DNA of 64,000 nt. Source: a virus. The notes under the pieces were generated by a model. That model had not been told where the DNA came from. It searched no databases and saw only the letters and a program-made list of their open reading frames with translations. Position numbers and translations under genes: made by a program. This document shows, piece after piece, positions 25,039-42,222 of this stretch (positions are counted from its first letter, which is position 1; the number at the start of each line of letters is the position of its first letter). The stretch lies in IMG/VR virus record IMGVR_UViG_3300045988_092366. One strand, given 5' to 3'.

Positions 25039-25224
25039 GGTGTTCTCCTTAGCGATATGCAGTGATACATATATATAAAAGAAGATATGGTAAGAGTTAA
25101 TCTATTTTATTATATGGAATCTGATTTAACTTCATTACCATATCTTCGTAGTGTCTTTAAGATTTTTCTCTCTATTGTACCTAAAAATTAGAGGGTAAAA
25201 ATTATAATACTTTGCCCAATAATT

Positions 25225-26337
25225 TTAAATTTTTATCCACAACTTACATCTTGAATCTGTTGGCTGAGTAGATGAAACTTGAACTGAATATTCAGTGTTT
25301 GCACTTCCAGCAGTAGTGGCATATTTAACTGATTGAGAACCAATATCAGCTGATGTAATACATTGACCGTAATATGAATCGTCTGAGTTGTATAGAGAAA
25401 CATTGGGAGTGCCGTTTAAACCTTTAATGCAAAAGGCACCACCCTTATTATGGTCGCCAATAGCTGCATCATCGCCAACGACATACCAAGTATTGTTTGC
25501 GAAATACGGTTCTAGCTTAGAAGGAAAATCACTGATTTGAGCTCTAGTATGCGTGTGACTGGCTGCGGCTGCACCAAGTTCAGATAAGGTAGGTTTATCG
25601 TCACTTGTATAAACTTTATACCAGCTATTCCAAGAAGAAGCAGATAAGTCTGAACCACGTAAAGCCAAACGTGGATGTCCTTCGCTTGCGTATCCAAAAG
25701 CAAGTTGATAACCATGACCGCCAGAAGTTTCACTCCAAGGAGCTAAAGATAAAACGCCACAAAAAGTTCCATTACATCCAATAGGAGAATTAATTTTACT
25801 TGCAGTCTTAAAATCAACAGTCAATTTATTTTTATCGAATCCAGCGTCTTTTGGCGCAGGATTCTCATTTCTTGTATCTGCAACATCAACACCGTCAGTA
25901 GAACTAGATTTTGTAGCAGTATTTGCCACGTTAGCGCTGTTAGCGGTATTAGCTGTTTTAGCTGAATTAGCAGTATTGGCTGTGTTTGCGGAATCAGCTG
26001 TTGTAGCAGTATTAGCTGTATTTGCACTTCCTGCTGAATCAGCATATCCCGCAGACATTTTTTCCCACGTGCTAGAACCTAACGCTCTTTTATATAAATA
26101 AGAGACTGCTCCATCTGGAATAGCAATTTGAAATGGAGTGCCAATATCTGCATCGGTGAACACACTTGCCCATCGATTAACGGGAGAAGACGCATTGCCA
26201 CCAGTTGACGGCACTCCCCTAACAACATAATAACCAGTTTTGGTATGATTATCTAGATTCGTATCAGTTGTTACTGTTTCTGTCAACAGCGGTATTTTAG
26301 AAAATTCACTACCATCAGAAAGATAAAGTTCAGCCAT
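25225..26337 (-). CDS. tail fibre / receptor-binding protein paralogue A (C-terminus ...TDSRCKLWIKI)
   Basis: Repeats ANTANTAN. N-terminus MAELYLSDGSEF resembles paralogue D. ATG has no recognisable SD. Confidence 0.55.
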   Translation of the reverse strand: MAELYLSDGSEFSKIPLLTETVTTDTNLDNHTKTGYYVVRGVPSTGGNASSPVNRWASVFTDADIGTPFQIAIPDGAVSYLYKRALGSSTWEKMSAGYADSAGSANTANTATTADSANTANTANSAKTANTANSANVANTATKSSSTDGVDVADTRNENPAPKDAGFDKNKLTVDFKTASKINSPIGCNGTFCGVLSLAPWSETSGGHGYQLAFGYASEGHPRLALRGSDLSASSWNSWYKVYTSDDKPTLSELGAAAASHTHTRAQISDFPSKLEPYFANNTWYVVGDDAAIGDHNKGGAFCIKGLNGTPNVSLYNSDDSYYGQCITSADIGSQSVKYATTAGSANTEYSVQVSSTQPTDSRCKLWIKI

Positions 26338-26366
26338 TTAAATCAATCAAACTAGTTGACGTGGGC

Positions 26367-26399
26367 TTAAAGCCCCCCCCAAGAAGTGTAAGTTTGCAT
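26367..26399 (-). CDS. upstream mini-ORF a containing a G8 tract (MQTYTSWGGL*)
   Basis: SD GAAAGGA with 7-nt spacing. G tract read as TGG GGG GGG. With G10 its stop would become TGA overlapping codons 2-3 of fibre A (ATGGCTGA). Confidence 0.3.
   Translation of the reverse strand: MQTYTSWGGL
26373..26380. repeat. homopolymeric tract C8 (+) / G8 (-)
   Basis: Preceded on + by the hairpin GGGCTT/AAGCCC. Lies between fibres B and A. Confidence 0.9.
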
Positions 26400-26416
26400 A
26401 AAAATTCCTTTCAATC

Positions 26417-27613
26417 TTAAATTTTAATCCATATCTTACATGTATCGCTAGTAGGCTTTGTGCTAGATATGGTTATAATATCGCTCGCTGCCTTGGCATT
26501 GAGCTTTGTGTTCATTTCACTTTCAGTATAGTAGCGGTCATCGTGAGAATGGCTAGAGTTGGCTTTACCGTTTAGTTTGGTATTAACTTCACTTTCAGTG
26601 TAATATCTATCATCGTGAGTGTGACTTGGAAGGTCAGCTGCCACAAGTTTTCTAAACGATGCTTTTCCGTTGGAACCACTTGGAGCAGCTAATATAGTAT
26701 TAGCGGTTCTATCTGTTTGAGCACTATAAATATATGAACCCCAGTCACTAACATCTGTCATTTTGTGAGTGTGACCTGATGGAGAAAACGTTGAAGGTTT
26801 ACCACTAACATTACCCCATGAGACACTATTGGCAGAACCAGCACTGCTAGCATATGCAACTTTACCAATATCATAACCAGTAGCTTGTGCAGTGTATGCC
26901 CTTGTATCCATTGCAGCTCGGGGTTCATCGTTCATTAGCTGCCAAGAAGAGCCGTTACCACCACGAGTGCTGTTTGCTAAAATTCGGATATTACACGAAT
27001 TATATGTACCAGTAGCATGAAAATATAAATCAGCATATCCAACAGTTGATTTAGCAGAATGTATTTTTAAAATAAATTGGTCTGGTTCATATCCATATCT
27101 ACAAAGCCATTGAACAGTTCCATGAGTAGCCACAGCGCTTTCAGATACATTCTCATTGCGGAAACGGACTGCTAGAATGCCAAATCCACCATTTTCGTAA
27201 CCAGAATCTACACACAATACAACGCTACCATCGAACCAATTTTGCGCTGATTCTATTTTCAAACAACGCCAATATGGTTTAGCAGCGCTAGATTGAGTAA
27301 CATATCTTACAGTGCCATTTAGAGATTTTGTATAATTGGCAGTTCCAGAAATATTACATGTTACAACATTTCCTTCTGGATTATATTTAAAATTATCATT
27401 ATGGACTCTGTGAGTGTCATTGCCACTATCTGAAAACCAAATTGGCCTTAATGCATTTGCTGTCGCATTACCATAATTTTTTACAGCATTAGCAGCACCT
27501 CCTGCGGAATCTGCACCCGCATAATTATGGCTATGACTAGCAGCTGCTGCTCCCACCATGTCTGGAGTCCACTCTTTAAAAGACCCACCGCTAGGATAAT
27601 ATGCTTTAGCCAA
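26417..27613 (-). CDS. tail fibre / receptor-binding protein paralogue B (C-terminus ...TSDTCKIWIKI)
   Basis: HTHDDRYYTESE(V/M)NTKLN HxH fibre repeats; TTG start without SD. Confidence 0.55.
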   Translation of the reverse strand: MAKAYYPSGGSFKEWTPDMVGAAAASHSHNYAGADSAGGAANAVKNYGNATANALRPIWFSDSGNDTHRVHNDNFKYNPEGNVVTCNISGTANYTKSLNGTVRYVTQSSAAKPYWRCLKIESAQNWFDGSVVLCVDSGYENGGFGILAVRFRNENVSESAVATHGTVQWLCRYGYEPDQFILKIHSAKSTVGYADLYFHATGTYNSCNIRILANSTRGGNGSSWQLMNDEPRAAMDTRAYTAQATGYDIGKVAYASSAGSANSVSWGNVSGKPSTFSPSGHTHKMTDVSDWGSYIYSAQTDRTANTILAAPSGSNGKASFRKLVAADLPSHTHDDRYYTESEVNTKLNGKANSSHSHDDRYYTESEMNTKLNAKAASDIITISSTKPTSDTCKIWIKI

Positions 27614-27674
27614 TTACATCGCCCCCCCCCCAGCAGACCTCACTAAAGGTGCGCTGTGTTAAAATATTCTTCAT
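27606..27674 (-). CDS. upstream mini-ORF b containing a G10 tract (MKNILTQRTFSEVCWGGGDVIG*)
   Basis: Stop TAA overlaps codons 2-3 of fibre B (TTGGCTAA). Confidence 0.3.
   Translation of the reverse strand: MKNILTQRTFSEVCWGGGDVIG
27622..27631. repeat. homopolymeric tract C10 (+) / G10 (-)
   Basis: Read directly; lies between fibres C and B. Confidence 0.9.
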
Positions 27675-27681
27675 ATTATCA

Positions 27682-29817
27682 CTATACCTTAATCCATAAT
27701 TTACAAGTACTTGCGTTAGGCTGCGAAGAAGATACGATAACCTCTTCTGGTCGCCAAGTATTGGTGTTGGTATCTGTAAGAGCAATAGTCGCGTTACCAG
27801 ACTGATTGAGCGTAAAACTGCCCTTATTCGTACCATTCTGTGTGATTGTAACAGTGCCATTACCAACAGAAGGAATTGACGGTCTGCCAGAAATTTCAGA
27901 CCAAGAATAGGAAGGTTTACTTGAAGCCTTAGCCCAAGCATAAACGTCACTAGCTGGCATAGAGGACGGTCTACCAGAAACATTGCTCCATGCGACAGAA
28001 CCAGCTGTGTTAGCATGACTTACAGATTGCGAACCGATAGTAGCAGAAGTGATAATTTCCTGCGAGCTGCCACCAGTAGGTAGATAAGTCGTATTGGTAG
28101 AATTCTTGCCAGCATTAAAATTAGTATCTGTATCGTAAGCGAATACTAGGCGTTCATCGCCTGCTAAGTTGCCGACAGTCCAAGCGCCCTTAGCTGTCTT
28201 TTGACCTACAACTGGATTGTATGACTGTGAATTGGCAGTAGAACCAAAAACGATAGCATTAATACGACCTTGAATCCAACTGCCACCAGCACCACGAAGG
28301 ATGCGGCCAGTCATTGTACCACCAGCAAGAGGTAGATAAGAGTGAGAGTGGCTTGCAGGAGCAGCACCTACATCACCAGCAGAAAGTGTGATATTAGCAC
28401 TTAAAGCCTTACCATTGACTGTGCGGCTAGCTGGAACATATGAACTAAACTTATCGTTCAAGGCTTTACCCTGTGCCGCAGACAGTGATTGGTCGGTAGC
28501 AGTAGAAGTAAGATTATTCTGAACAGGACGCCAAGTATTTGTATCTGTAGAATGTACTGTAATATTACCACTTGCGTCAGATGTTACAGAAGTAGCGCCA
28601 GTACCTTTAATAACCACACCACTACGGAAAGTATTATTATCTGTAACATTGATATAAGTGTTACCGTTTGTAGTAGCAGCATTTGCAGTGCCACTTTTTG
28701 CGCCAGCTACGATATTGGTAGTATAATGAGTATTTGTATCTGTCTTTGGCGGGGTGTAGCCAAGAGCAGTAGTAACATTAGCGCTTGTAAGTTCGCCACG
28801 AATTGTCGCAGAAGACTTATTCTCTACACTACCAAGACCCAAATCGGCTTTTGTAGTCTTGTGCGGATTGCCAGTAGATGTGGAGTGGTTATATGCAGCA
28901 CGAGATTCATCACCATAACCAGCAGTGGAATGAGTTGTACCGAGGGCAATAGTTTCAGAAATTACGACATATGTGCTACCGCTCCAACGATAGGTTTTGT
29001 TGTTGCTAAGGTCAACATAAATCTTACCAGCTTCGGCTTTGATTTCACCAGAATATGCGCCACTAGAGCTTTTTGTGGTATAGAATTTGCCACCATTTAA
29101 ATAACCTTCGATAACATCATCGACATAGCTTGGAAGATGCGCTGCATCAATTACACCGCTAATGCGCGAAGCAGGAAGATTACCACTAACTTCACTAATA
29201 GTATAGCTAGGCTTGCTTGACTGCTTAGCCCATGAATAGACATCGCTCGCTGGCATACTAGTTGGGAAGTCTGTAATCTGAGCTTTTGTATGTGTGTGGC
29301 TTGAATTAGCTTTTGCATTCAGCTTTGTATTGATTTCGCTCTCAGTATAATACCTATCATCATGAGTATGGCCTGTATTAGACTTGCCGTCAAGTGCAGA
29401 TTTAATGACCTTATTCTGTACAGGATTCATTGAAGTAGTAGAAAGTTCTGCATCAACAGTAACGTGATTTGAACCTGCGGCAACACCGTCAAGTTTAGCC
29501 TTGTCTGCGGCAGACATAAGACCTGCGGCACTGGCAGTAGCATTGCCGTATACAGTATTTGAATCTGTAACATTAAATGTGCTACCATCGCTACCTCTAA
29601 GAGTGATTGTACTACCGCTCTTGGTTAAGTTATAAGTTGTATTTGTATTGATATTATCTTTAATCTGAATCAGAGAGGATGAAGAAATACCCATCCACAA
29701 AGTGCCGGTATCGGTGGCAACATACAATGCACCGTCCAATACTTTATTTTCGGCAGTGAGTGCTTTGATATTAGGTTCTTTATCTCTGATAAATTTTACT
29801 CTTGCTATCTTGCTCAC
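27682..29817 (-). CDS. tail fibre paralogue C (711 aa; C-terminus ...ASTCKLWIKV)
   Basis: GHTHDDRYYTESEINTKLNAKANSSHTH and SMPASDVY(S/A)WAK repeats. N-terminal module VKFIRDKEP...LYVATDTGTLW is shared with 3 other proteins. GTG start. Confidence 0.55.
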   Translation of the reverse strand: MSKIARVKFIRDKEPNIKALTAENKVLDGALYVATDTGTLWMGISSSSLIQIKDNINTNTTYNLTKSGSTITLRGSDGSTFNVTDSNTVYGNATASAAGLMSAADKAKLDGVAAGSNHVTVDAELSTTSMNPVQNKVIKSALDGKSNTGHTHDDRYYTESEINTKLNAKANSSHTHTKAQITDFPTSMPASDVYSWAKQSSKPSYTISEVSGNLPASRISGVIDAAHLPSYVDDVIEGYLNGGKFYTTKSSSGAYSGEIKAEAGKIYVDLSNNKTYRWSGSTYVVISETIALGTTHSTAGYGDESRAAYNHSTSTGNPHKTTKADLGLGSVENKSSATIRGELTSANVTTALGYTPPKTDTNTHYTTNIVAGAKSGTANAATTNGNTYINVTDNNTFRSGVVIKGTGATSVTSDASGNITVHSTDTNTWRPVQNNLTSTATDQSLSAAQGKALNDKFSSYVPASRTVNGKALSANITLSAGDVGAAPASHSHSYLPLAGGTMTGRILRGAGGSWIQGRINAIVFGSTANSQSYNPVVGQKTAKGAWTVGNLAGDERLVFAYDTDTNFNAGKNSTNTTYLPTGGSSQEIITSATIGSQSVSHANTAGSVAWSNVSGRPSSMPASDVYAWAKASSKPSYSWSEISGRPSIPSVGNGTVTITQNGTNKGSFTLNQSGNATIALTDTNTNTWRPEEVIVSSSQPNASTCKLWIKV

Positions 29818-29832
29818 ATCCTTTCTGATATA

Positions 29833-30594
29833 TTATTTAATAGAAGACCAAGTTAAATCATCTGGCGTAGCAAAATCAGAAGCATCATGATATGCGGCAG
29901 ATTTTAAACCATATACTGCCACAGATTTATCTTTAACTTTAATTGTACCATTTGCAGTGCCAGTAGTGATAGATGGAACTGTCAAAACATCAGATGGCAA
30001 AATGCCGCTTGCAACGGTATCGACATATGCTTTAGTGGCAATGTCATTATCGTCATTGATGACTTGACCAGCCGCGTATTTAATTTTACCAGATAAAGTA
30101 CCACCAGTAAGAGGAAGATATTTCGCTTTCTCTTGGTCGGTATATGCCTTTGCATCTTTAAGGGCTTTATCTGCCTTTACTTGTGCGTCTGTTGAAGACG
30201 CACCAGATGCAGTCTTAATTGCTGAATTCATCTCACTCTTGGTTGGATAGTTCGATAAGTCGGTCTTAGAGCCACCTAGCTTTTCAAACTTACCATTAAC
30301 CCAAAAATATTCAGTATATTCATTGCTGGATTCAGTCAAATCTGGCAACATATAAATTGTATTTTCTTCGCCAGTAGAAGGAAGAGTTGACCCTTTTGCC
30401 AGCACAACACGTTTAAGATGCGGCGCACCTGCTACTGCATTTGCAATAGCCGTGTTCATAGCATCTTTTTTAACATATTCTGCTGGAACTTTATCACTCG
30501 GAATGTTAACATCCCAGTTAATATCAGAAGCATCTACGAGTTTGAAAGTGCCGTTATTCTTTTGTTTGATTTTATCAATAAGTTGAACAGGCAT
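29833..30594 (-). CDS. Ala-rich fibrous structural protein (paralogue of 31437 and 33292)
   Basis: Shares HLKR..., TIYM(V/L)P and KADKAL(K/E)DAKAYTD modules. Confidence 0.4.
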   Translation of the reverse strand: MPVQLIDKIKQKNNGTFKLVDASDINWDVNIPSDKVPAEYVKKDAMNTAIANAVAGAPHLKRVVLAKGSTLPSTGEENTIYMLPDLTESSNEYTEYFWVNGKFEKLGGSKTDLSNYPTKSEMNSAIKTASGASSTDAQVKADKALKDAKAYTDQEKAKYLPLTGGTLSGKIKYAAGQVINDDNDIATKAYVDTVASGILPSDVLTVPSITTGTANGTIKVKDKSVAVYGLKSAAYHDASDFATPDDLTWSSIK

Positions 30595-31412
30595 TATTTC
30601 ACCTCCACCGTAGTTGCACCTAATCCTGCATTAGTTGACCTATAGATATTATAAGAAGCGGTATAGCCACTTGCATTTGTGAAATCAAAAGTCTTTACTT
30701 TGTTGAAGCCACCCTCGAAACCTCCAACATAAAATGCGGGAGTTCCAAAAGAAGCAGGAATAGCAAAATAAATATACTGCTCAGCATTAGCTGTGACGCT
30801 CCATGAACCCGTGCGACCAGACACTAAATTTCTAGTAAGCCCTTTGACAAACGCCGCATCTATCTTAGAAGTATCTGTTATATTGCTCACGCCATAGTAT
30901 TTACCATTTAAAAAGTAAATTGTAGTCTGCTTAGTAGATGTGGCTTTGCGAGCGTCAGTAGCAGTCAAAGTAAATGCGGTCGTTGCGGTAAGAGGTGCCG
31001 CAAATGTAATTGCCGCAGTTCCAGATTGCGTCTTGTTGATTTCAAATGATTGACCACCTGCTGTAATTGTCAGTTTAGAAGGTTGTTTATTCAAATTCCA
31101 AGAGAAGTTGGAAGATGGAAGACGAGAACCTATTTCAAGTGTGCCGCTATTGTTAGAAAAACTATTAACGGACATTGCTTTATAAATTGAAAGTGTGCCG
31201 TCAGAGGTAATATCAAAATCTCCGCTTGGCTTGATAATACCTGCGGCAGAGCCGGTGGCAATTTTAATATCGCCACAGCTGTATTTGATATTATTTTTCA
31301 TGATACTCGTGGTATCTGAAAGAAAATAGATTCCGTTGGGGTCTATTTTGGTAGACCCCAACGCATCATACTCTGATTGCACGCCTGTGTAAAATCTAAT
31401 ATCAGCAGACAT
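30594..31412 (-). CDS. structural protein with shared N-terminal module
   Basis: N-terminus IRFYTGVQSEYDALG...NGIYFLSDTTSI is homologous to the N-termini of 31437, 32861 and fibre C. Confidence 0.4.
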   Translation of the reverse strand: MSADIRFYTGVQSEYDALGSTKIDPNGIYFLSDTTSIMKNNIKYSCGDIKIATGSAAGIIKPSGDFDITSDGTLSIYKAMSVNSFSNNSGTLEIGSRLPSSNFSWNLNKQPSKLTITAGGQSFEINKTQSGTAAITFAAPLTATTAFTLTATDARKATSTKQTTIYFLNGKYYGVSNITDTSKIDAAFVKGLTRNLVSGRTGSWSVTANAEQYIYFAIPASFGTPAFYVGGFEGGFNKVKTFDFTNASGYTASYNIYRSTNAGLGATTVEVK

Positions 31413-31436
31413 ACAATCTCCTTAATCTAATTTAAA

Positions 31437-32849: not shown

Positions 32850-32860
32850 TCACGTCTCCT

Positions 32861-33283
32861 TTAAATAGTTGTCCATTCTGTATTATTAGCAACACACATA
32901 TATGTATGAAGGGCCGCATTCCATTTATAAATTGCTTTATCGGCAATATATAACATAGTTTCTTTTCCTTCTTTTGGAAAATCTTCAACAGAAGTACCAA
33001 AAGCTATGGTTTGTAAATTAGAAGGAGTAAGCTGTTTCCACCCGTCTTTATAACGCCACATTACGCCAGTTTCTTCTACATAATAGTAGCCTTCAACTGG
33101 CGCTAATTTATCAATTCTATCTTTGTCTGTAGGAAATTCTTGGATACAATTGTATTTAATTCGTAGACCGTTATAATCTAAATAGAGTTGACGTGTATCG
33201 GAAACAAAAACTAAATTTCCATCGCTAACTGGTAATTTATTTAATTTTGCGGCCACAGTTGTATATACACGAACTACAGCCAT
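32861..33283 (-). CDS. small structural protein consisting mainly of the shared N-terminal module
   Basis: VRVYTTVAAKLNKLPVSDGNLVFVSDTRQLYLDYNG. Confidence 0.35.
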   Translation of the reverse strand: MAVVRVYTTVAAKLNKLPVSDGNLVFVSDTRQLYLDYNGLRIKYNCIQEFPTDKDRIDKLAPVEGYYYVEETGVMWRYKDGWKQLTPSNLQTIAFGTSVEDFPKEGKETMLYIADKAIYKWNAALHTYMCVANNTEWTTI

Positions 33284-33291
33284 TTTAACTC

Positions 33292-34644: not shown

Positions 34645-34660
34645 AATTTATAACTCCTTT

Positions 34661-35665
34661 CTAAATGGTTACTGTAAATGTCATTGGAGCTGCGGCAGGA
34701 GCAGCCATAGCGTAGCTATAGACTTTATAGTTTGCAGCTGTTGCTCCGTTGGCACCTTCGACAGACACGGTCTGCTTGGCAAAGCTAGAAGCCATGCTAA
34801 TATCATTTGTTTCTTCATATTTCACTTGGCTTACATCACGAAGAGCCGCAGGATAGGCGAAAACAATATATTGTTGCCCTTGAGCGACTTTAATGGTAAG
34901 TTTGGTACCAGCAGTAGGATTAAGAGACTTACCAGTAAGACCACGTACAATTGCAGAATTTAGCTCAGGTACAGAGCCTACACCAGTGCCATAAAAGGCA
35001 TTTCGCTTTCCAACATAAGAAAGTGCATTTGATGTAATAGAACCAGCAGTAATATGACCAGCTGGGGAATCATCTCCAAGATTATCTTGCTTGATTGCAC
35101 CCTCGGCATAAGAAGCAATAGCTTTAAAAGAAGTGGTACCTTCTCCAATAGTAATTGAATGGTCAGATAGAACTAGTGGGCTAGTAGTACCCTCAAGTAC
35201 GTCTACAGTACCATCAGAAATTTTAATTGCGGTAAGAGCGCCAGCATCTTGCTTCGTAAAGTTTGCTGTCATTGTTGCTGCAAGGGTAGTACCAACTTCA
35301 TAATTGCCCGGTTGAGCGCCTTTTGAAACCGCAAGAGAAATCTTAGGTGCAATATATGTAGCAGGTACACGTTTCATAATAATCTTTTTAATTAATGCAT
35401 CTAAATCAGTACCAGCTTCAATAACATCGCCAGTCTTGATACCGCCAACACTTCCACCAACGCCTAGTTGAACAGTGTGAGCCTGTTTAGATTTAGCGTT
35501 GCCAAGTGTATGCGGCACTTTAGAATCATCTACATAAATCATATTATCTTCTGTAGAAATAACGACACTATTTGTACCAATAGTCCCAGCGGTAATACTA
35601 TCATTTAGTTTTGTTTCAGAACCATGAAAAAAACTAATTTTTTTTGCATTTTCTGCATCAGCCAT
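34661..35665 (-). CDS. hypothetical structural protein (Gly/Thr/Ala-rich)
   Basis: 334-aa ORF in the tail module. Confidence 0.3.
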   Translation of the reverse strand: MADAENAKKISFFHGSETKLNDSITAGTIGTNSVVISTEDNMIYVDDSKVPHTLGNAKSKQAHTVQLGVGGSVGGIKTGDVIEAGTDLDALIKKIIMKRVPATYIAPKISLAVSKGAQPGNYEVGTTLAATMTANFTKQDAGALTAIKISDGTVDVLEGTTSPLVLSDHSITIGEGTTSFKAIASYAEGAIKQDNLGDDSPAGHITAGSITSNALSYVGKRNAFYGTGVGSVPELNSAIVRGLTGKSLNPTAGTKLTIKVAQGQQYIVFAYPAALRDVSQVKYEETNDISMASSFAKQTVSVEGANGATAANYKVYSYAMAAPAAAPMTFTVTI

Positions 35666-35728
35666 ATGTTTGTAACCCCTCTCTATTGAGTATAAAAATT
35701 TTTATATATATAAAAATAAACCATATAG

Positions 35729-36337
35729 CTAAAATTCTCGAATCTTAACTTCTGCGCTGATAGCTATCTGGTCTAATTTATTTTCTACTGAAACGGCTTT
35801 ATCATATGCACTTGTTGCAATTTGTTTGATTTCTTTTGTTTCCTTTGTCCATTCTTGAAATTCTTTACGTTGTTCATTCATTTGTTTTTCCATCTTGTCC
35901 CCAAGAGTAGCAAGATGGATTACAGCATTTTGAAAAGCGCTAAAATCATCAGAAACGACAAACGCAGAGCCGTCATTTGGGTCGGACAATACATGTACAA
36001 GAAAATTCGTGCTAGAAGCAATTGATACCGAATCAACTAATTCGACACAACAAAGCACGTCTCCTTCATGTAACATGGCTTGCGGCCATTTAATTTCCCA
36101 TACGATAGGGTCTTCATGTGTTTTTGTAAAAACATTATATCCTTTTATATCTAGTTGAACATGCCGCCAACTCAAATAAACTTTTGTATCTGCGACACAT
36201 TGCGCAGCAGCTTCTTGGTCGAAAATAATTCTAAAAGTACGACCATTTGCATCTGCGCCGCCAGCCACAATAGGGTCTTGAATGTCTTGGTCAAGAGACT
36301 TTAAATTGACTGTAACTGCTTTTAATTCCTGACTCAT
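35729..36337 (-). CDS. hypothetical structural protein (globular N-domain plus C-terminal coiled coil)
   Basis: 202 aa; C-terminal heptad-like QMNEQRKEFQEWTKETKEIKQ. Confidence 0.3.
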   Translation of the reverse strand: MSQELKAVTVNLKSLDQDIQDPIVAGGADANGRTFRIIFDQEAAAQCVADTKVYLSWRHVQLDIKGYNVFTKTHEDPIVWEIKWPQAMLHEGDVLCCVELVDSVSIASSTNFLVHVLSDPNDGSAFVVSDDFSAFQNAVIHLATLGDKMEKQMNEQRKEFQEWTKETKEIKQIATSAYDKAVSVENKLDQIAISAEVKIREF

Positions 36338-36961
36338 TTATTCACCCCTTTCATTGTTCTTTTGGCTTACAATAAATTGTGGATTGGAAAGATTGATTCT
36401 CGGTAGTTCGCGTATCTCTTCCATTAAGCCATCAATGAATGAGTTGCCGCCTGCCGCTTTATAATATAAATATCTACGCTCTAGAGATTCTAGATTAAGG
36501 TCATCAATAGCCTTAATTTCATAGCAAAAATAGTGATGCTTGTCAATGATATAACTGCGGGAGTTCTCCTGCAATCTTTCAAGAGTAAGTTTTTCATGCT
36601 CTTGGAGTGCTTTAATATCATTCGATTGGTTGCTAATTTCTTGGCTAAGCCTTTTAATGTCTGCTTGCAACGAAGCAATACTTTCTATAATCTCAGAGTG
36701 CTGTGTATCTTTAAGTGTCTGATAATTGAAGAATTTTTTTAATTTATTATAAAAATATTCCAATAGTTCACTTAAAAATTTAAAAGCAACAGCTAAAGTC
36801 ACAACTAGCATAACGATAGCTCCGAAAGAGTATTGCGACACTAGTTGCGACAAAGCATCCATTCTCGGCAATATCCCTTCTTCTCTACATAATCTAATAT
36901 AATATGAAAATAATTTATATTTGATTTTAGGAATTTGCCCATAAAAAAATGAGGGAAACAT
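36338..36961 (-). CDS. hypothetical membrane/coiled-coil protein
   Basis: TM FGAIVMLVVTLAVAF followed by coiled coil. Confidence 0.3.
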   Translation of the reverse strand: MFPSFFYGQIPKIKYKLFSYYIRLCREEGILPRMDALSQLVSQYSFGAIVMLVVTLAVAFKFLSELLEYFYNKLKKFFNYQTLKDTQHSEIIESIASLQADIKRLSQEISNQSNDIKALQEHEKLTLERLQENSRSYIIDKHHYFCYEIKAIDDLNLESLERRYLYYKAAGGNSFIDGLMEEIRELPRINLSNPQFIVSQKNNERGE

Positions 36962-36985
36962 AAAGTTTCCCTCGAATAAAATAAA

Positions 36986-37372
36986 TTAAGCGGTTCTATG
37001 CCACACATAGCAATTTTGATAAGCTGGTAAATTATTATGAGCTTTTCCGTCACCTTTTGATTCTACATATTTATCAATAAACTTATTAGAATAATCCAAA
37101 CCAGCCGCGCCAATTTGATAAGGCAAATTGGTAGCAATGTTATTACCAGCTTGCTTAGTTGATATGTGGTGAGTATGAGGTGGCATTTCACCAACGGTAA
37201 GTTTATGTGTGTCTTCCCCGCCGGTATTAGTATTTGTTGAAGCTCGTAGCACTTTATCAGTTATTTGTGTCCAAGTACCGCCAATACTGGATGCCGGTGA
37301 AGCGCTATGAAAAGAAATATATACAGAACCAACAGGGTAGACAATATCCATGAGGTTAACGTAATTAGACAT
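36986..37372 (-). CDS. phage tail-collar-domain protein paralogue 4
   Basis: MSNYVNLMDIVYPVGSVY...GGEDTHKLTVGEMPPHTHH...CYVWHRTA; SD GAGGT. The track TTG at 37378 lies 2 codons upstream. Confidence 0.5.
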   Translation of the reverse strand: MSNYVNLMDIVYPVGSVYISFHSASPASSIGGTWTQITDKVLRASTNTNTGGEDTHKLTVGEMPPHTHHISTKQAGNNIATNLPYQIGAAGLDYSNKFIDKYVESKGDGKAHNNLPAYQNCYVWHRTA

Positions 37373-37402
37373 ACGCAACCTCGCTTAGATTTAGATTGCT
37401 TG

Positions 37403-37858
37403 CTACGCTGTGCGATACCAAATAAAGCAAGTTGTGTAAGGTGGCAAGTTGTTGTGTGCTTGCCCCCCCCCATTAGAAGCAATAGTGTGGGTATGGTTAC
37501 CAACCTCAGACGTATACTGTCCACCAAACCTACCAACAGAACCAAAATAATTACCAGCACCTTGAAGAACGTTACCTCCACCTGGACCGTACCATGCGAT
37601 AATTCGTTCATCAATACTGTGATTGTGTTTGCCAGCTTCTCCTGTAGAACCATTGTGGCTGTGAGCGGGCATTTCATTAAGGCTAAGCGTGTGCGTTGCT
37701 TCGCCGCCCGTATTCTTGGCGGTTGTAGACCCATAAAGAAAAGTGTTCAATCGTGTCCAAGTGCCACCAATAGAGCTAGCAGGAGATGTTGCATCCATGC
37801 TCTGATAGATTGAACCTACTGGATATATAATATCCATGAGGTTTACAAAATTACTCAT
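37403..37858 (-). CDS. phage tail-collar-domain protein paralogue 3 (contains an in-frame G9 tract near its 3' end)
   Basis: MSNFVNLMDIIYPVGSIY...GGEATHTLSLNEMPAHSHN...NGGGQAHNNLPPYTTCFIWYRTA. Confidence 0.5.
   Translation of the reverse strand: MSNFVNLMDIIYPVGSIYQSMDATSPASSIGGTWTRLNTFLYGSTTAKNTGGEATHTLSLNEMPAHSHNGSTGEAGKHNHSIDERIIAWYGPGGGNVLQGAGNYFGSVGRFGGQYTSEVGNHTHTIASNGGGQAHNNLPPYTTCFIWYRTA
37463..37471. repeat. homopolymeric tract C9 (+) / G9 (-) inside collar paralogue 3
   Basis: Codes GGG GGG GGG. Followed by the hairpin GGCAAG...CTTGCC. A G10 variant would read through to a TAA overlapping the ATGTCTAA start of paralogue 4. Confidence 0.85.
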
Positions 37859-37902
37859 TTATATCCTTTCTAATTGCATAGAAAGAATATTATAAAATCT
37901 TC

Positions 37903-38358
37903 TTAGGCTGTTCTTTTATATACTGCTAAAGAATAATGATATGGAATATGCTCTTGTTGTTCGGTAACAAAATGTCCGTTATCATTAAGTTTCCAAGTAC
38001 CTTTAGTCCACAAATTCCAACCAGTATCGCCACCATCTTTAGTACCGACTGACAATAATTGCCATAAACTACCAGCAGCAGCATTAGTATTCCAAAAACC
38101 AATACCTGAATATTGTTGCAGTTTACCATTCCAACCAACAACATTGTGCTGATGGTCTGGTATGGCTAGCGAAGAAATCATATTGCTACCAGAAAAACGT
38201 CCAGCTACGTTATAGGTATCACCACTTGCCGCAAGCAAACAATTTTCTATTTTAGTCCAAGTTCCGCCAATACTACTCGCAGGAGAAGTACTAGAAGTAC
38301 TAAAGTATATACTACCTACTGGATAAATAATATCAAGAAGATTTACAAAATTAGACAT
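37903..38358 (-). CDS. phage tail-collar-domain protein paralogue 2
   Basis: MSNFVNLLDIIYPVGSIY...IPDHQHN...; C-terminus ...AVYKRTA. Confidence 0.5.
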   Translation of the reverse strand: MSNFVNLLDIIYPVGSIYFSTSSTSPASSIGGTWTKIENCLLAASGDTYNVAGRFSGSNMISSLAIPDHQHNVVGWNGKLQQYSGIGFWNTNAAAGSLWQLLSVGTKDGGDTGWNLWTKGTWKLNDNGHFVTEQQEHIPYHYSLAVYKRTA

Positions 38359-38452
38359 GGTAAATCACCATGCTTAGAACAGCCATTGAAGAAGAAGCTA
38401 CATTATTGTAGCCCCCCCCCCAACGACCGTGATTAGTCATTAAGTTTTTCAT
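38351..38452 (-). CDS. upstream mini-ORF d containing a G10 tract (33 aa; MKNLMTNHGRWGGGYNN...)
   Basis: SD GAAAGGA. Stop TAA overlaps codons 2-3 of collar paralogue 2 (ATGTCTAA). Confidence 0.3.
   Translation of the reverse strand: MKNLMTNHGRWGGGYNNVASSSMAVLSMVIYHV
38412..38421. repeat. homopolymeric tract C10 (+) / G10 (-)
   Basis: Preceded on + by the hairpin CTACA-TTAT-TGTAG. Confidence 0.9.
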
Positions 38453-38487
38453 AATATCCTTTCATTTAGGATATTAGATTTTAGATT

Positions 38488-38868
38488 TTAAGCAGTTCGT
38501 ACCCAGACTCTACAAGCATATGAATAAGGATAATAATCAAGTCCTCTTCCCTCGGTACTAGTATATTTGGTAACGAATATGCTACTGTCGTCAAGTCCAC
38601 CGCCACCCCATTGGTACGGCCAATCATTATTAACGCCATTACCAGCATGTTTATTTGTGGCAGAATGTTTATGTGCTGGCATTTGGTCAACTGTAATATG
38701 TTTGCTGCCCGTATAACCAGAAGTACTAGTATATGCGGCCAAGCAAGCGCCATCTTTAATCTGTGTCCAAGTGCCACCGATAGACGTTGCAGGTGAAACA
38801 GTGCTAGTAGTAATATACATACTATTTATAGGATAAATAATATCTAAAAGATTTACAAAATTGCTCAT
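38488..38868 (-). CDS. phage tail-collar-domain protein paralogue 1
   Basis: MSNFVNLLDIIYPINSMY...MPAHKHS...CRVWVRTA; strong SD AAGGAGGT. Confidence 0.5.
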   Translation of the reverse strand: MSNFVNLLDIIYPINSMYITTSTVSPATSIGGTWTQIKDGACLAAYTSTSGYTGSKHITVDQMPAHKHSATNKHAGNGVNNDWPYQWGGGGLDDSSIFVTKYTSTEGRGLDYYPYSYACRVWVRTA

Positions 38869-38934
38869 TATTCAACCTCCTTATTTGGGAGGTCATCTAA
38901 AATCATAATATCAAATTGATTTATAGATTTTAAG

Positions 38935-38985
38935 CTACCGCAGTAGCCCCCCCCCTAGAGAGGTCAATTCATTAAATTTATTCAC
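38935..38985 (-). CDS. upstream mini-ORF e containing a G9 tract (GTG start; VNKFNELTSLGGGLLR*)
   Basis: SD AAAGGAG. G tract followed by the hairpin GCTAC-TGCG-GTAGC. A G8 variant would terminate at the TAATG overlapping the collar-1 start. Confidence 0.25.
   Translation of the reverse strand: MNKFNELTSLGGGLLR
38947..38955. repeat. homopolymeric tract C9 (+) / G9 (-)
   Basis: The adjacent hairpin GCTACCGCAGTAGC is duplicated at 39654-39667. Confidence 0.9.
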
Positions 38986-39030
38986 ATAAAACTCCTTTTC
39001 TTTCTTAGAATTATATTCTATATCTATATG

Positions 39031-39064
39031 AAAAAAGGGCAAAACCCGTAACAGGATTTTGCCC
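39031..39064 (-). terminator. rho-independent terminator inside the fibre array
   Basis: - strand: GGGCAAAATCC-TGTTAC-GGGTTTTGCCC followed by TTTTTT. Lies downstream of fibre D. Confidence 0.7.
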
Positions 39065-39073
39065 AAAGTTATA

Positions 39074-39625
39074 TTAGATTTTAATCCACAATTTACATCT
39101 TGAATCCGTTGGTTGCGCAGATTGTACCATAACGCAATATTCATTATCAGCACTGCCAGCTTTTGTCGCATAGCTCGCCGAGCTTGCACTGCCAGCACTG
39201 GCCGCATATTTCACACTCTTGGATGAATCAGCCGTATTATCGACATTGCCCAATCCAACAGAAGATTTAGAAGGAGGATAAGCGTTTGTATAAAATTCCT
39301 CTACAGAGATAACAGAACCATTCGAGTAAGTCACTCTATAAGCCTTGCCCGGGCCAGTCATAGGAAATAACAATAAATTACCATATTTATAATTATCTTC
39401 ACCAACACCAGTCCTATGCGGCACATATAAATAATTATACCAAGAGCCACCAGTAAAGCTCAATCTTTTCTCTTTTGACTGATTGAACATACATGACCCT
39501 AGCGATGGAGGTCTATTCACTAATTTTACAATTAAATCATCTATTGTGTCCGCATTATTTTCTTGCGCTGTCATAGCTGGGATTACAGTAAAATTCTTCC
39601 CATTTGAAAAATAAAATTCGCTCAC
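39074..39625 (-). CDS. tail fibre paralogue D (C-terminus ...PTDSRCKLWIKI)
   Basis: MSEFYFSNGKNF... GTG start with no properly spaced SD. Confidence 0.5.
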   Translation of the reverse strand: MSEFYFSNGKNFTVIPAMTAQENNADTIDDLIVKLVNRPPSLGSCMFNQSKEKRLSFTGGSWYNYLYVPHRTGVGEDNYKYGNLLLFPMTGPGKAYRVTYSNGSVISVEEFYTNAYPPSKSSVGLGNVDNTADSSKSVKYAASAGSASSASYATKAGSADNEYCVMVQSAQPTDSRCKLWIKI

Positions 39626-39655
39626 TCCATATCATATAGAATGGTATCTATAGAG

Positions 39656-39700
39656 CTACCGCAGTAGCCCCCCCCCATCCCATAAAAGATTAATAAACAT
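39656..39700 (-). CDS. upstream mini-ORF f containing a G9 tract (MFINLLWDGGGLLR*)
   Basis: SD AAAGGAG overlaps the stop of fibre E. A G8 variant would end at a TGA overlapping the GTG start of fibre D (GTGA). Confidence 0.3.
   Translation of the reverse strand: MFINLLWDGGGLLR
39668..39676. repeat. homopolymeric tract C9 (+) / G9 (-)
   Basis: Same GCTACCGCAGTAGC hairpin as at 38933-38946. Confidence 0.9.
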
Positions 39701-39710
39701 ATTTTCTCCT

Positions 39711-40226
39711 TTAAATCTTTATCCATAATTTACAAGTAGAAGATGTAGGCTGAGAAGATGATACGGTGACAATATCATTGGCCGCATACTGAGAATGCGT
39801 ATGCGATGCTTGTGCAAACATATTTTTATTGATTGTTTTTAATGTATTACCATCATACGCAGCTATCCAAGTGAAGCCAGAATAGGGCAAGTCCTTAGCG
39901 CTATAAGAAACTTTTAAATCACGCCCATCGCCAGAGTCTTTGATTAAACCAGCTTCATTAGCATATTTTACTAATTTATCCGCATCGGCTGTGTTATCAA
40001 CAGCATTAAGACCTAACCACTTTTTATATTCTGTCTTAGATACGTCTTTAATTTTCTTATCATTGCTTAGTCCAAGAGCATAAGTAAAATCTGCGGCAGT
40101 AAAACTAGACCCAGACCATCCTAGCTTGATTACATTATTCGGATTATTGTAATCTCGCACGCCGTCAGCTTTAGAAGGGACAAATTCAGAAAAATTCGTC
40201 CCATCGCTTACCATAAAATCAGCCAC
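39711..40226 (-). CDS. tail fibre paralogue E (C-terminus ...PTSSTCKLWIKI)
   Basis: MADFMVSDGTNF...; GTG start, poor SD. Confidence 0.5.
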   Translation of the reverse strand: MADFMVSDGTNFSEFVPSKADGVRDYNNPNNVIKLGWSGSSFTAADFTYALGLSNDKKIKDVSKTEYKKWLGLNAVDNTADADKLVKYANEAGLIKDSGDGRDLKVSYSAKDLPYSGFTWIAAYDGNTLKTINKNMFAQASHTHSQYAANDIVTVSSSQPTSSTCKLWIKI

Positions 40227-40240
40227 ACCTATCAGCTAAG

Positions 40241-40285
40241 CTATTTAGCGGGGCAGATGCCCCCCCCCAGAAATGTGTTATTCAT
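40241..40285 (-). CDS. upstream mini-ORF g containing a G9 tract (MNNTFLGGGICPAK*)
   Basis: SD AAGGA. A G8 variant would end at a TGA overlapping codons 2-3 of fibre E (GTGGCTGA). Confidence 0.3.
   Translation of the reverse strand: MNNTFLGGGICPAK
40260..40268. repeat. homopolymeric tract C9 (+) / G9 (-)
   Basis: Flanked by hairpins GGGGC-AGAT-GCCCC and GCTAA-GCTA-TTAGC. Confidence 0.9.
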
Positions 40286-40295
40286 ATCTACATCC

Positions 40296-41855
40296 TTAAA
40301 TTTGTACCCAAATTTTAACATGTTCTTCTGTTGGCTTACTCATACCAACATAGACAGTGCCAACATCATCCGCAAGTTTGCCATTGGTCACAGCTTTGCT
40401 TGCAATTTTGCCTGATGAAACAGCTCCATCAGCAATCTTAGCCGAAGTTACTTTGCCATTACCAATAGTCGTAGCCATTGTAATAGGGCTTGCCGTATTA
40501 AAACTTGTAGCAGATGTTGTAATATCTCCGCTCAGCGCAACAGTATTATTAAACTTGTTCGCAGATTGAGCATTCGTAGCGCTAGTAGCGTTACCTTCTA
40601 CATTGCCAGTAAGAGTACCAACAATCTTATTAGCATAAACATAATTCCACTTTGCACTAGAGGAACCAAGAGAATAAGAGTTTGTAGCGCTAGGAACGAT
40701 ATTCTGACCAGTTAGAGAACCTGTCAGCGTGCCGCCAGATAGCTTTAAATAACTCGCATTGTGATTGTGGTTAGCGGTTGCAGCGCCGATATTAGCACAA
40801 GTAAGATTGACATTGCCTGTACGATAATTGCTTTCCGCATTACCCTTAACGCCAGTGACCTCGCCAGCAATTTGCCACGTACCGTCTCCGCGAAGGAATT
40901 TATTCTGACTTCCAGCCGCAGGAGCAGGAACAAGGCCAGAGTGACCAGCTGCATTGGCAGTGGCAGCTTTCATGACTTCTGGTTTAGTTGTATCTATATC
41001 AAACGAAACATCAGCAGAACCATTGAAACTAAATGTCTGTTTACGCGAAGCTGATGCAGTCCCATATGTCACTCCAACACTTAAATTATGACCAACTTTA
41101 CCAGCAGTGGTCGCATTAGTAGCGTTATCGGCATTTGTCGCATGACTTGCGTTAAGCGCTGTACCAGCTTTGTACTCTTGGTATCCAGCATAAGAATTTA
41201 GCTTACTATCATCAACGACAATATACATAACGTTAGTGTCGTTTTGAATAACGCTATCGCCAGTCTGCACTTGCTTATTTGTTAACTGAAAGCGTGCAGC
41301 CTTATTTGCAACATGAACTAATCGTTCTAACGCACCTTGCGGAATAGTGCTTAGAGGTAACACTCCAGTGACACTTGCCGCATCAATTGATGGAATTGTA
41401 ATTGAAATATTCCCAGAACCATCAAAATTAGCGCTGCCCGTGCCACCGTTGTTGCCGCCTTTAACGCTGATTGAGCGTGCGGTCTTTAGCTTCGTAGCTG
41501 TATCGGCATTACCAGTGACATTACCAGTTAGGTTTCCAGTGAATCCGCCATTACCAGTAACCTTGCCAGCGAATGTAGTAGGAGACTTAACTGATTGCGC
41601 GTTAGCAGTTGTCTTGTCTAGCTTATTGTTCGCATTGTCATTAACGGCCTTAACTGCTTTTGGCGTAGCGGCAACAACACCTGTGGCCGCACTATCGGTC
41701 GCATTTGTCGCGTCTGAAAGCCAGACTTCACCACGCTTATTGTCGGTAGCATCTGGCGCAACGTAAATCGGCCTATATGTTTTAAGCGTAGGGTCATATA
41801 CCTTAGCAACAAAATTATTTTTCATCGTAGAATCATTTGGATTACCTTTAGCCAT
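40296..41855 (-). CDS. tail fibre paralogue F (519 aa) with T4 gp37/lambda Stf-type fibre repeat
   Basis: AATGVVAATPKAVKAVND (the AATPKAVK phage-fibre repeat); C-terminus ...EEHVKIWVQI; own SD GGAGGT. Confidence 0.55.
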   Translation of the reverse strand: MAKGNPNDSTMKNNFVAKVYDPTLKTYRPIYVAPDATDNKRGEVWLSDATNATDSAATGVVAATPKAVKAVNDNANNKLDKTTANAQSVKSPTTFAGKVTGNGGFTGNLTGNVTGNADTATKLKTARSISVKGGNNGGTGSANFDGSGNISITIPSIDAASVTGVLPLSTIPQGALERLVHVANKAARFQLTNKQVQTGDSVIQNDTNVMYIVVDDSKLNSYAGYQEYKAGTALNASHATNADNATNATTAGKVGHNLSVGVTYGTASASRKQTFSFNGSADVSFDIDTTKPEVMKAATANAAGHSGLVPAPAAGSQNKFLRGDGTWQIAGEVTGVKGNAESNYRTGNVNLTCANIGAATANHNHNASYLKLSGGTLTGSLTGQNIVPSATNSYSLGSSSAKWNYVYANKIVGTLTGNVEGNATSATNAQSANKFNNTVALSGDITTSATSFNTASPITMATTIGNGKVTSAKIADGAVSSGKIASKAVTNGKLADDVGTVYVGMSKPTEEHVKIWVQI

Positions 41856-41866
41856 TTACTACCTCC

Positions 41867-42220: not shown

Positions 42221-42222
42221 AT

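Follow-up and report, generated by a model that had tools for sequence, protein, structure and literature searches.

In the mosaic fibre loci of T-even, lambdoid, P2 and Mu phages and in the Gin/Cin invertible segments, the N-terminal anchor is usually constant and the C-terminus variable. The locus described here, from an uncultured human gut phage (~37% GC), is like these loci in swapping receptor-binding parts within conserved flanks and in encoding several alternative fibres together, but its constant part is a C-terminal peptide of ~20 aa. Switching by inversion, as in Gin/Cin systems and shufflons, was considered and excluded, because the genes all lie on the minus strand and a repeat search of the window (the whole 64-kb stretch of DNA analysed) found no inverted repeats flanking alternative fibre ends, two trivial ones being present and neither flanking a fibre end.

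A constant C-terminal element is known from T4 fibritin (gpwac), whose ~30-aa C-terminal domain, the foldon, has the dual role of initiating trimerisation and contacting the long tail fibres (PMC3797505), and JS98-type fibritins carry two such C-terminal motifs (PMC3797505). The tail described here is like the foldon in occupying ~20–30 residues at the extreme C-terminus of a putatively trimeric fibre, in its predicted beta-hairpin with a conserved Trp, in persisting through variation or exchange of the remainder of the protein, and in sometimes recurring, twice in the JS98 type (PMC3797505) and as internal repeats in a few other proteins that carry the tail motif. The foldon caps a coiled coil, whereas the fibres here are beta-rich and six different ones belong to one phage, and no sequence or profile similarity between foldon and tail was found (hhalign probability 0.13%, E=0.45).

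The C-terminal domain of T4 gp10 (PF21939; related to the head and collar domains of gp11/gp12) holds a variable insert between a conserved N-terminal segment and a last strand, a plan shared by the collar proteins encoded at this locus. In T4 the domain ends a 600-aa baseplate protein, whereas here it is free-standing (126–151 aa) and present in four copies in the window and 2–9 in relatives, several of which carry or follow a poly-G tract. Campylobacter Fletchervirus phages are described as carrying hypermutable poly-G tracts in their genes for receptor-binding proteins (Sorensen et al. 2021, Cell Rep 35:109214, as summarised in PMC12633550). In that summary, as here, runs of G7–G11 are concentrated in receptor-binding genes and their length varies between near-identical genomes; the tracts it describes lie inside those genes, whereas six of the seven here lie in leader ORFs, and the phage and host lineages are different.

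The six fibre genes (A–F) and four collar genes are arranged as two tandem clusters, all on the minus strand (Table 1), and the coordinates and ends of these ten ORFs agree with the initial annotation. Its start codons required revision: none of those of FibB, FibD and FibE is ATG, and the ATG at 37372 (MSNYVNL...), not the TTG at 37378, is the most probable start of collar paralogue 3. In relatives, orthologues measure 243–370 aa for fibre A, 64–419 aa for fibre B, 193–954 aa for fibre C and 183–198 aa for fibre D, and fibre F is near-constant (509–519 aa in close relatives). Fibre D is globular at its N-terminus only, and the N-terminus of fibre C presumably resembles the N-terminal domain of the HylP and Mtd fibre proteins. 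The similarity of fibre N-termini reported earlier was recovered in four of the six, which start M-A/S-E/D-x-Y-x-S-D/N-G-x-x-F, a pattern found in exactly 4 of the 68 window ORFs of at least 100 aa. Part of this similarity is constrained at the nucleotide level: the stop codon of the upstream poly-G leader ORF falls within the start context (xTG-GCT-GA, GTGA or TTG-GCT-AA).

Table 1. Fibre genes, collar genes and poly-G leaders of the module (positions in the window; SD, Shine-Dalgarno).
Feature	Coordinates	Strand	Details
fibre A	25225..26337	-	370 aa; codons of the putative tail hairpin and stop at 25225-25290
fibre A conserved N-terminus	26302-26337	-	MAELYLSDGSEF
leader of fibre A	26338..26416	-	SD, ATG, ORF MQTYTSWGG...; G8 at 26373-26380; stop overlaps start at G7/G10 (ATGgcTGA)
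fibre B	26417..27613	-	398 aa; TTG start; tail ...SSTKPTSDTCKIWIKI, then stop, at 26417-26482
leader of fibre B	27614..27681	-	ORF MKNILTQRTFSEVCWGGG...; G10 at 27622-27631; stop overlaps start in present phase (TTGgcTAA)
fibre C	27682..29817	-	711 aa; N-terminus VSKIARVKFIRDKEPN...; tail ...SSSQPNASTCKLWIKV, then stop; no poly-G tract
collar paralogue 3	36986..37372	-	~128 aa from ATG; ends CYVWHRTA, then stop; PF21939 E=2.6e-18
collar paralogue 1	37403..37858	-	151 aa; Gp10_C; ends CFIWYRTA, then stop; internal G9 at 37463-37471
collar paralogue 2	37903..38358	-	151 aa; Gp10_C N-terminal half; ends AVYKRTA, then stop; PF21939 E=5e-9
leader of collar 2	38359..38487	-	ORF MKNLMTNHGRWGGG...; G10 at 38412-38421; stop overlaps start in present phase (ATGtcTAA)
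collar paralogue 4	38488..38868	-	126 aa; Gp10_C; ends CRVWVRTA, then stop; PF21939 E=1.2e-9
region upstream of collar 4	38869..39073	-	GTG-started leader; G9 at 38947-38955
fibre D	39074..39625	-	183 aa; GTG start; N-terminus (M)SEFYFSNGKNF; tail ...QSAQPTDSRCKLWIKI, then stop
leader of fibre D	39626..39710	-	AGGAG-N5-ATG, MFINLLWDGGG...; G9 at 39668-39676; stop overlaps start at G8 (GTGA)
fibre E	39711..40226	-	171 aa; GTG start; N-terminus (M)ADFMVSDGTNF; tail ...SSSQPTSSTCKLWIKI, then stop
leader of fibre E	40227..40295	-	ORF MNNTFLGGG...; G9 at 40260-40268; stop overlaps start at G8 (GTGgcTGA)
fibre F	40296..41855	-	519 aa; own AAGGAGG SD; Phage_fiber_2 repeat; tail ...MSKPTEEHVKIWVQI, then stop

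All six fibre ORFs stop with the common ending first noticed in the initial annotation, whose consensus is (V/I)xVSSxQPTxxx(C/V)K(L/I)W(I/V)(K/Q)(I/V), the conserved peptide being ~20 residues long. BLASTP between the paralogues gave significant similarity (FibA vs FibD, 6e-13; FibE vs FibD, 3e-7) confined to the last 20–30 aa and a short VDNTAD motif, and the repeat search independently recovered five CK(L/I)WIK tails as a 59-nt family of 61–78% identity. The identity expected of the last 60 nt did not materialise, the tails being 43–80% identical as DNA: the longest exact run between any two is 18 nt, most exact runs are 4–14 nt, and 74 of the 151 codon pairs with identical residues (49%) are synonymous variants within the window. 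Across 56 distinct tail sequences (83 proteins), all four Pro codons occur at the invariant Pro, and every synonymous codon is represented at the Lys position and at the Leu/Ile positions. Since synonymous sites have diverged and the residues are the same, the tail is, judged from its codons, maintained by selection on the protein and not on the DNA.

The same motif extends far beyond this genome. An exhaustive HMM search found it in 161 protein clusters (E<=1e-3), on proteins of 38–1437 aa with many unrelated N-termini, and neither Pfam nor PDB has an entry covering it. Of 148 proteins passing a stricter regular expression, 141 have it at most 3 residues from the protein end. Some proteins also contain internal tandem copies, three with a 48-aa period in P0031, three in P0032 and four in P0055, of which three have a 36-aa period; P0031 and P0032 belong to other, unrelated phages, with no Gp10_C (collar) gene within 10 kb.

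Structurally, the tail probably forms a beta-hairpin. AlphaFold2 was run on monomers, and its model of fibre E is poor (pLDDT 41), but the last 20 aa are its best-scored part (pLDDT 63–64), with strands 152–156 and 165–170 paired as a two-strand hairpin at moderate confidence. Over the last ~20 residues, a short strand (h-x-V-x-V-S-S) would lead through a Q-P-T-x-x-x loop into an amphipathic closing strand, (C/V)-K-(L/I)-W-(I/V)-(K/Q)-(I/V). The Peptidase_S74 type of C-terminal intramolecular chaperone known from tailspikes and fibres, a domain of ~100–150 aa, gave no Pfam match, and the conserved part here is only ~20 aa. We propose that the tail is an autonomous structural module closing the polypeptide, whose likeliest job would be that of a trimerisation or folding nucleus, foldon-like but not homologous to the foldon, which caps a trimeric fibre at its C-terminal end and keeps that end in register; a new receptor-binding cassette would then need it in order to fold and be assembled. 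To this reading we assign a probability of about one half.

The hairpin could equally be a docking element, and a tentative alternative, less probable but deserving consideration, is that it is a common plug attaching all fibres to one shared partner. This partner might be a site on the baseplate, an assembly chaperone used by all fibres, or the free-standing Gp10_C collars, which would then be the heads of fibres whose shaft and head are separate proteins. A peptide common to all fibres for assembly or docking, the second option of the initial annotation, fits both peptide-level selection and a C-terminal motif on 161 clusters with unrelated bodies. Docking in particular would account for one tail on six fibres of a single virion whose bodies differ; fibre D, with its globular part at the N-terminus, would suit a C-terminal anchor; the collars consist of the domain alone, with no attachment region of their own; and the T4 foldon itself doubles as a contact site for long tail fibres (PMC3797505). 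Gene order also leaves room for fibre–collar contact through the tail. In each phage examined in this lineage that has hairpin fibres, the gene of the FibF-type fibre is directly followed by collar arrays; at 17 of 22 more distant loci, and likewise in Hadza-gut relatives, 2–9 collar genes come immediately after a FibF-type fibre. This co-occurrence, however, comes from a single phage lineage and carries little independent weight, and the internal tandem copies and the phages with no nearby collar gene favour an intrinsic structural unit over a terminal plug. The lack of foldon sequence similarity counts against a foldon-type cap.

The structural module has also to be set against explanations in which the shared ends reflect DNA history. 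The primary reading of the initial annotation, that the termini are kept mainly as homology for cassette exchange, appears unlikely as the cause of their conservation, although the mosaicism it predicted is abundant in relatives and some junctions fall at the predicted ends. Breakpoints are concentrated at poly-G tracts and where the genes of fibres A, D and E stop. One relative (L047) lacks the FibD cassette, with its crossover inside the TGTAAATT(A/G)TGGAT codons of CKLWIKI; two others (L018 and L032) lack FibE, the junction being the poly-G tract just upstream; and in a fourth (L001) FibE retains ~28 codons at its start and 26 at its end around a different middle, with ~80 nt flanking the replacement on either side. 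Numerous further junctions fall within the genes, at the VDNTAD..KYA and HDDRYYTESE modules, and the fibre middles, first described as unrelated, are not wholly so but are mosaics of short shared modules (LGLxxVDNTAD, SVKYAxxAGSA and HDDRYYTESExNTKLN, the last common to FibB and FibC). Tail DNA has nearly saturated synonymous sites, the 161 clusters keep the peptide with all synonymous codons, and no inverted repeats able to form an invertible segment were found in the window. Because the tails have diverged as DNA and many junctions are internal, recombination exploits the conserved ends without accounting for their conservation. Junctions in relatives directly show that cassettes are gained, lost and fused at conserved stretches. 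This use would be a by-product of having a module at the 3' end of every paralogue and, in four of them, a poly-G leader and N-terminal hairpin at the 5' end, short conserved stretches doubling as crossover points. Recent tandem duplication or gene conversion, with the shared ends as functionless leftovers, is highly improbable: there are two tandem gene clusters, and fibres A and D have 102 nt in common at 75% identity, but the high synonymous divergence of tails whose peptide is kept contradicts it, as does the spread of the motif far beyond this genome, to proteins whose bodies are unrelated.

The module also contains seven poly-G tracts (G8–G10) that had been overlooked. All seven runs of at least seven G in the 64 kb lie within it (26373–40268), six in SD-led leader ORFs upstream of fibre or collar genes and the seventh inside collar 1, and a 48-nt block including the collar 4 leader tract is repeated in front of fibre D. 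In all 29 leaders compared, from the window and relatives, the leader stop lies at +1 or +5 of the downstream start codon in exactly one of the three tract-length phases, here called coupled or ON; the fibre B leader is ON in its present phase. The genes behind leaders have no well-spaced SD themselves, and most start with GTG or TTG. Such tracts are hypermutable in a close relative: over ~21 kb, two genomes (L135 and L136) are separated by 2 substitutions, but four of their five tracts differ by one G, these being the four one-G indels between them, and orthologous tracts span G6 to G20. The overlap of leader stop and next start in one phase suggests control by translational coupling, in which G-tract slippage would determine if ribosomes stop at the start codon and begin translating again there, making coupling of the fibre and collar genes phase-variable. 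Against this model, the predicted ON phase is present in only 8 of the 29 assembled leaders, about the chance expectation. Frameshifting of the main protein itself applies to collar 1 only, whose tract precedes the stop by 22 codons; with G10 the frame is shifted and terminates on the collar 3 start (ATGtcTAA), and frameshifted natural variants of collar 1 occur in relatives.

The endings quoted for the collars were accurate, but their reading as evidence for cassette exchange does not hold, the pattern being Gp10_C domain architecture with likeness over the whole length (33–51% identity) and the first 35 aa better conserved than the RTA tail. PF21939 matches all four collars (74.2, 67.7, 39.7 and 37.6 bits, cut-off 27; E down to 2.6e-20) and spans positions 1–139 of the 139-position profile in three of them, whereas none matched PF07484 (Collar) at E<=0.1. 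By these profile matches the four are ordinary paralogues of the T4 gp10 C-terminal domain as free-standing proteins, the domain starting at residue 7 and not forming the end of a large baseplate protein. Its core would consist of the conserved N-terminal 40 aa and the last strand around a variable insert; the monomer model from a four-sequence alignment is poor (mean pLDDT 43), residues 1–40 and 141–151 reaching only 59–72. Alteromonas phage tail fibres carry transient chaperone 'caps', which by the description in PMC10579305 are, like the collars, small proteins whose genes directly follow a fibre gene and which may sit on the fibre tip. Unlike those caps as described there, the collars are Gp10_C domains under putative phase variation, which would fit a role in receptor binding better than one in chaperoning.

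The C-terminal tail of about 20 residues (...QPT...CK(L/I)WIKI) shared by six fibre paralogues, fibres A-F, is an unannotated, widespread module. The initial annotation quoted the fibre C- and N-termini correctly, and the similarity it saw at the fibre ends is real: significance between paralogues is limited to the last 20-30 residues (fibre A versus fibre D, E=6e-13; fibre E versus fibre D, E=3e-7), and the shared N-terminal pattern occurs in exactly 4 of the 68 window ORFs of 100 aa or more. The middles, described there as unrelated, are not wholly so, being built of common short modules (LGLxxVDNTAD, SVKYAxxAGSA and HDDRYYTESExNTKLN). The proposed nucleotide-level identity of the tails does not hold: the 51-nt tails are 43-80% identical in the window, their longest exact shared run is 18 nt, and 74 of 151 codon pairs for identical residues use different codons. 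A set of 83 proteins has 56 distinct tails, in which the invariant Pro is encoded by CCT, CCA, CCC and CCG, Lys by AAA or AAG, and the Leu/Ile position by six codons. This variation of codons under kept residues shows that selection acts on the peptide, not the DNA.

An HMM search with a 32-column profile of the six window tails, run exhaustively against 1.84 billion representative proteins, matched 161 clusters at E<=1e-3; an earlier word-indexed protein search with the tail profile had returned just 5 short fragments. The motif-bearing proteins are 38-1437 aa long with N-termini of many kinds, and in 141 of 148 that match a stricter regular expression the motif ends at most 3 residues from the C-terminus. 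Three proteins carry internal tandem copies, each followed by D/N-T/P: three copies at 48-aa spacing in P0031, four in P0055 (three of them at a 36-aa period) and three in P0032. No Pfam family covers the motif, and two profile searches of the PDB with it gave only noise, with no matching sequence. The codons for CK(L/I)WIKI and a stop were found 35 times in 185,579 species-representative genomes, never with the QPT part or a long ORF; these matches are chance, and the rate they give supports the 50 viral matches as real. The same scan yielded no prophage or host clue. The module is a marker of fibre proteins on which Pfam is largely silent, and could serve for finding receptor-binding genes in metagenomes and for choosing cut sites in chimeric-fibre engineering.

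We propose, with a probability of about one half, that the tail is an autonomous C-terminal beta-hairpin that would cap the end of the trimeric fibre and set its register. Read from the sequence, its final strand alternates hydrophobic residues (C/V, L/I, I/V, I/V) with K/W/K positions. In an AF2 monomer of fibre E that is poor overall (mean pLDDT 41), the last 20 residues score best (pLDDT 63-64) and are modelled as two strands, 152-156 and 165-170, with the QPT loop between; a hairpin is also modelled for the first 15 residues, with low confidence (pLDDT about 32-34). This putative cap would act like the T4 fibritin foldon; the fibritin C-terminal peptide can nucleate trimerisation and also serve as a contact (PMC3797505). 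The likeness lies in the proposed way of working and not in homology, which a profile comparison ruled out; a Pfam search ruled out an intramolecular chaperone domain at the fibre C-terminus. Should the tail prove to be a self-contained trimerisation cap, one could use it to test whether beta-rich fibres fold from a C-terminal nucleus as fibritin does. The main rival, in which the tail docks as a plug into the baseplate or into collar heads encoded in trans, is supported by the strict gene order of fibre then collars; we find it less likely, and it is weakened by the internal tandem repeats and by motif-bearing phages that lack collars (no Gp10_C gene lies near P0031 or P0032, both in other phages).

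The initial annotation had offered cassette exchange at conserved termini, or an assembly or docking peptide, and both alternatives are in part supported. The ends do serve as crossover points in relatives from metagenomes: locus L047 lacks fibre D, with a crossover within the CKLWIKI codons (its sequence is that of fibre E as far as TCTACT and that of fibre D from TGTAAATTGTGGATTAAAATCTAA on), and the fibre E of L001 has a different middle between about 28 N-terminal and 26 C-terminal codons that are kept. In L018 and L032, where fibre E is missing, the join falls at the poly-G tract (window 39674 joined to 40262). Other relatives carry fused fibres: E-D at the VDNTAD..KYA module in L005 and L016, B-A in L022, and C-B at HDDRYYTESE in L023 and L043. 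The fibre and collar genes are where breakpoints of high-identity blocks concentrate; some sit at the stop ends of fibres A, D and E or at poly-G sites, but many are internal. The conserved ends are too short and too divergent for crossover use to explain their conservation; that the tail is kept for the sake of recombination is contradicted by the codon data and is improbable, and the same data leave recent duplication hardly credible as the source of the similarity. A 65-nt module encoding SHxHDDRYYTESE(M/V/I)NTKLNxKA has two copies in fibre B and one in fibre C, 72-78% identical, and is where the C-B fusions of L023 and L043 are joined. An invertible-segment mechanism for the locus was ruled out by a repeat search.

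Features of the window, with fibre lengths in relatives compared at constant N-terminal class (fibre F: close relatives)
Feature	Position	Strand	Length in relatives (aa)	Remark
Receptor-binding module	25225-41855	-
Fibre A	25225-26337	-	243-370	fibre cluster at one end
Fibre B	26417-27613	-	64-419	same cluster as fibres A and C
Fibre C	27682-29817	-	193-954	same cluster as fibres A and B
Fibre D	39074-39625	-		fibre cluster at other end
Fibre E	39711-40226	-	131-371	same cluster as fibres D and F
Fibre F	40296-41855	-	509-519	same cluster as fibres D and E
Six more fibre-like ORFs	29833-35665	-		no QPT...WIKI tail
Four collar genes	36986-38868	-
Tract before fibre A	26373-26380	-		overlap ATGgcTGA in one phase
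Tract before fibre B	27622-27631	-		overlap TTGgcTAA in one phase
Tract inside collar 1	37463-37471	-		G10 phase: stop overlaps collar 3 start
Tract before collar 2	38412-38421	-		overlap ATGtcTAA in one phase
Tract before collar 4	38947-38955	-		overlap TAATG in one phase
Tract before fibre D	39668-39676	-		overlap GTGA in one phase
Tract before fibre E	40260-40268	-		overlap GTGgcTGA in one phase
Fibre E start	40191-40226
65-nt modules	26490-26626, 29309-29373
Hoc-like protein	22038-23024	-		weak match
DnaE-type polymerase ORFs	5930-8521, 8624-9532, 9707-11014	+

A large tailed phage has its receptor-binding module here, with all genes on one strand and further fibre-like genes between the two fibre clusters. 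The most unusual feature of the locus is a linked system of poly-G leaders, which the initial annotation had missed. All seven runs of at least 7 G in the 64 kb fall in this module (G8-G10), and six of them lie in short leader ORFs that begin right after the preceding stop codon, most of them led by a good SD, such as AGGAG-N5-ATG ahead of fibre D. In 6 of 6 leaders exactly one of the three tract-length phases puts the leader stop over the next start codon, and all 29 orthologous leaders analysed show this one-phase overlap, over tract lengths of G6 to G20. The fibre genes under this control lack a properly spaced SD themselves, and three of them start with GTG or TTG. Loci L135 and L136, the same phage in two samples, have 2 substitutions over about 21 kb, whereas four of five tracts differ by one G, with no other indels; the tracts are therefore hypermutable. 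The assembled leaders, 8 ON (leader stop overlapping the next start) and 21 off, do not differ from chance and so are uninformative on selection.

From this anatomy we infer that the leaders control fibre and collar translation by termination-reinitiation: tract slippage would set the leader phase, placing the leader stop over the next start and coupling the two. The shared 'M-A-E/D' start of the fibres would follow, because GCT-GA carries the leader stop. Fusion of leader and fibre ORFs in some tract phase was rejected, as stop codons separate both in all three frames. Fletchervirus phages are a known precedent for poly-G tracts in receptor-binding genes (Sorensen 2021, cited in PMC12633550), and putting the tracts into coupled leader ORFs looks like a novel arrangement. 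It suggests that bet-hedging on host range can be wired through translational coupling, in place of a frameshift in the protein.

In most public gene calls fibre E begins at an internal ATG (MVSDGTNF..., 167 aa), four codons into the ORF that opens with GTG. It is this GTG that the leader stop overlaps, and the residues A-D-F between the two starts are conserved with the other fibre classes. In the 30-40 nt on the downstream side (- strand) of the tracts, six of the seven have a small hairpin whose 5' arm is made by the tract's last Gs, with stem sequences that differ between tracts (GGGGC-ATCT-GCCCC, GGCTAC-TGCG-GTAGC, GGCTACA-ATAA-TGTAGC, GGCAAG-N10-CTTGCC); these hairpins are weakly supported (individual z -0.7 to -3.7).

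The collar half of the earlier finding is ordinary. All four collars score above threshold against Pfam Gp10_C (PF21939), in three cases across the whole 139-position profile, and they are 33-51% identical along their full length, the N-terminus MSNFVNLLDIIYPVGSIY...SPASSIGGTWT being better conserved than the ...RTA end. Conserved ends with a variable middle, taken there to suggest cassette exchange, are therefore the domain's own architecture around a variable insert; the related gp12 collar has the same layout. What is unusual is that the Gp10_C domain is free-standing and that relatives have it in arrays of 2-9 copies. Poly-G tracts accompany many of these copies, and some copies are in a frameshifted state, for example ending ...EVAYV as predicted for the G10 phase of collar 1. 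In these relatives a FibF-type fibre is directly followed by the array (L130, 7078-10880; L084, 1633-4921; L135/L136, 11740-15220; L114, 6871-7637). The larger arrays hold 5-7 tracts and several frameshifted copies, and the minimal L114 has two collars and no tract. For collar 1, phmmer found no PDB match and the AF2 monomer model was poor.

A bolder reading, a 'split fibre', is in our view a long shot: the hairpin tail would be a universal plug through which any shaft could pair in trans with any free-standing Gp10_C head, each shaft and head being independently switched by poly-G slippage via termination-reinitiation coupling, so that virions from one genotype would be a random mix of many receptor-binding combinations.

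The lineage to which this phage belongs is common in public metagenomes. It has no cultured member in the collection searched (50,697 deposited phage genomes), where megablast of 25000-45000 and tblastn of fibre D gave no match and the phage has no close relative. Across IMG/VR, 47 loci, on contigs of 90-147 kb, have the tail motif, and most are 85-95% identical to the window; contigs of about 143-147 kb come from human gut samples, including Hadza stool, more distant members are present in HMP-type samples, and fibre F has 3,510 relatives at E<=1e-5. The phage has very large ORFs upstream and a DnaE-type DNA polymerase about 37% identical to SPbeta YorL. The polymerase is apparently split, an 863-aa ORF corresponding to phrog_405 positions 42-793 and a 435-aa ORF to positions 809-1096, with a 302-aa ORF between; either a split gene or the insertion of a mobile element may account for this. 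Three of the six tail-less fibre-like proteins (253, 272, 470, 140, 450 and 334 aa) end in another short Trp-containing strand (...LTWSSIK, ...LIEWQTL, ...NTEWTTI). Several of the six start with VKF/VRF...G..LYF..DT..LY, as does fibre C in kind, a start that resembles the N-termini of the HylP and Mtd fibre proteins. Directly downstream of the fibre A-C cluster, a 328-aa protein weakly matches Hoc-like head decoration (phrog_10993, E=9e-8).
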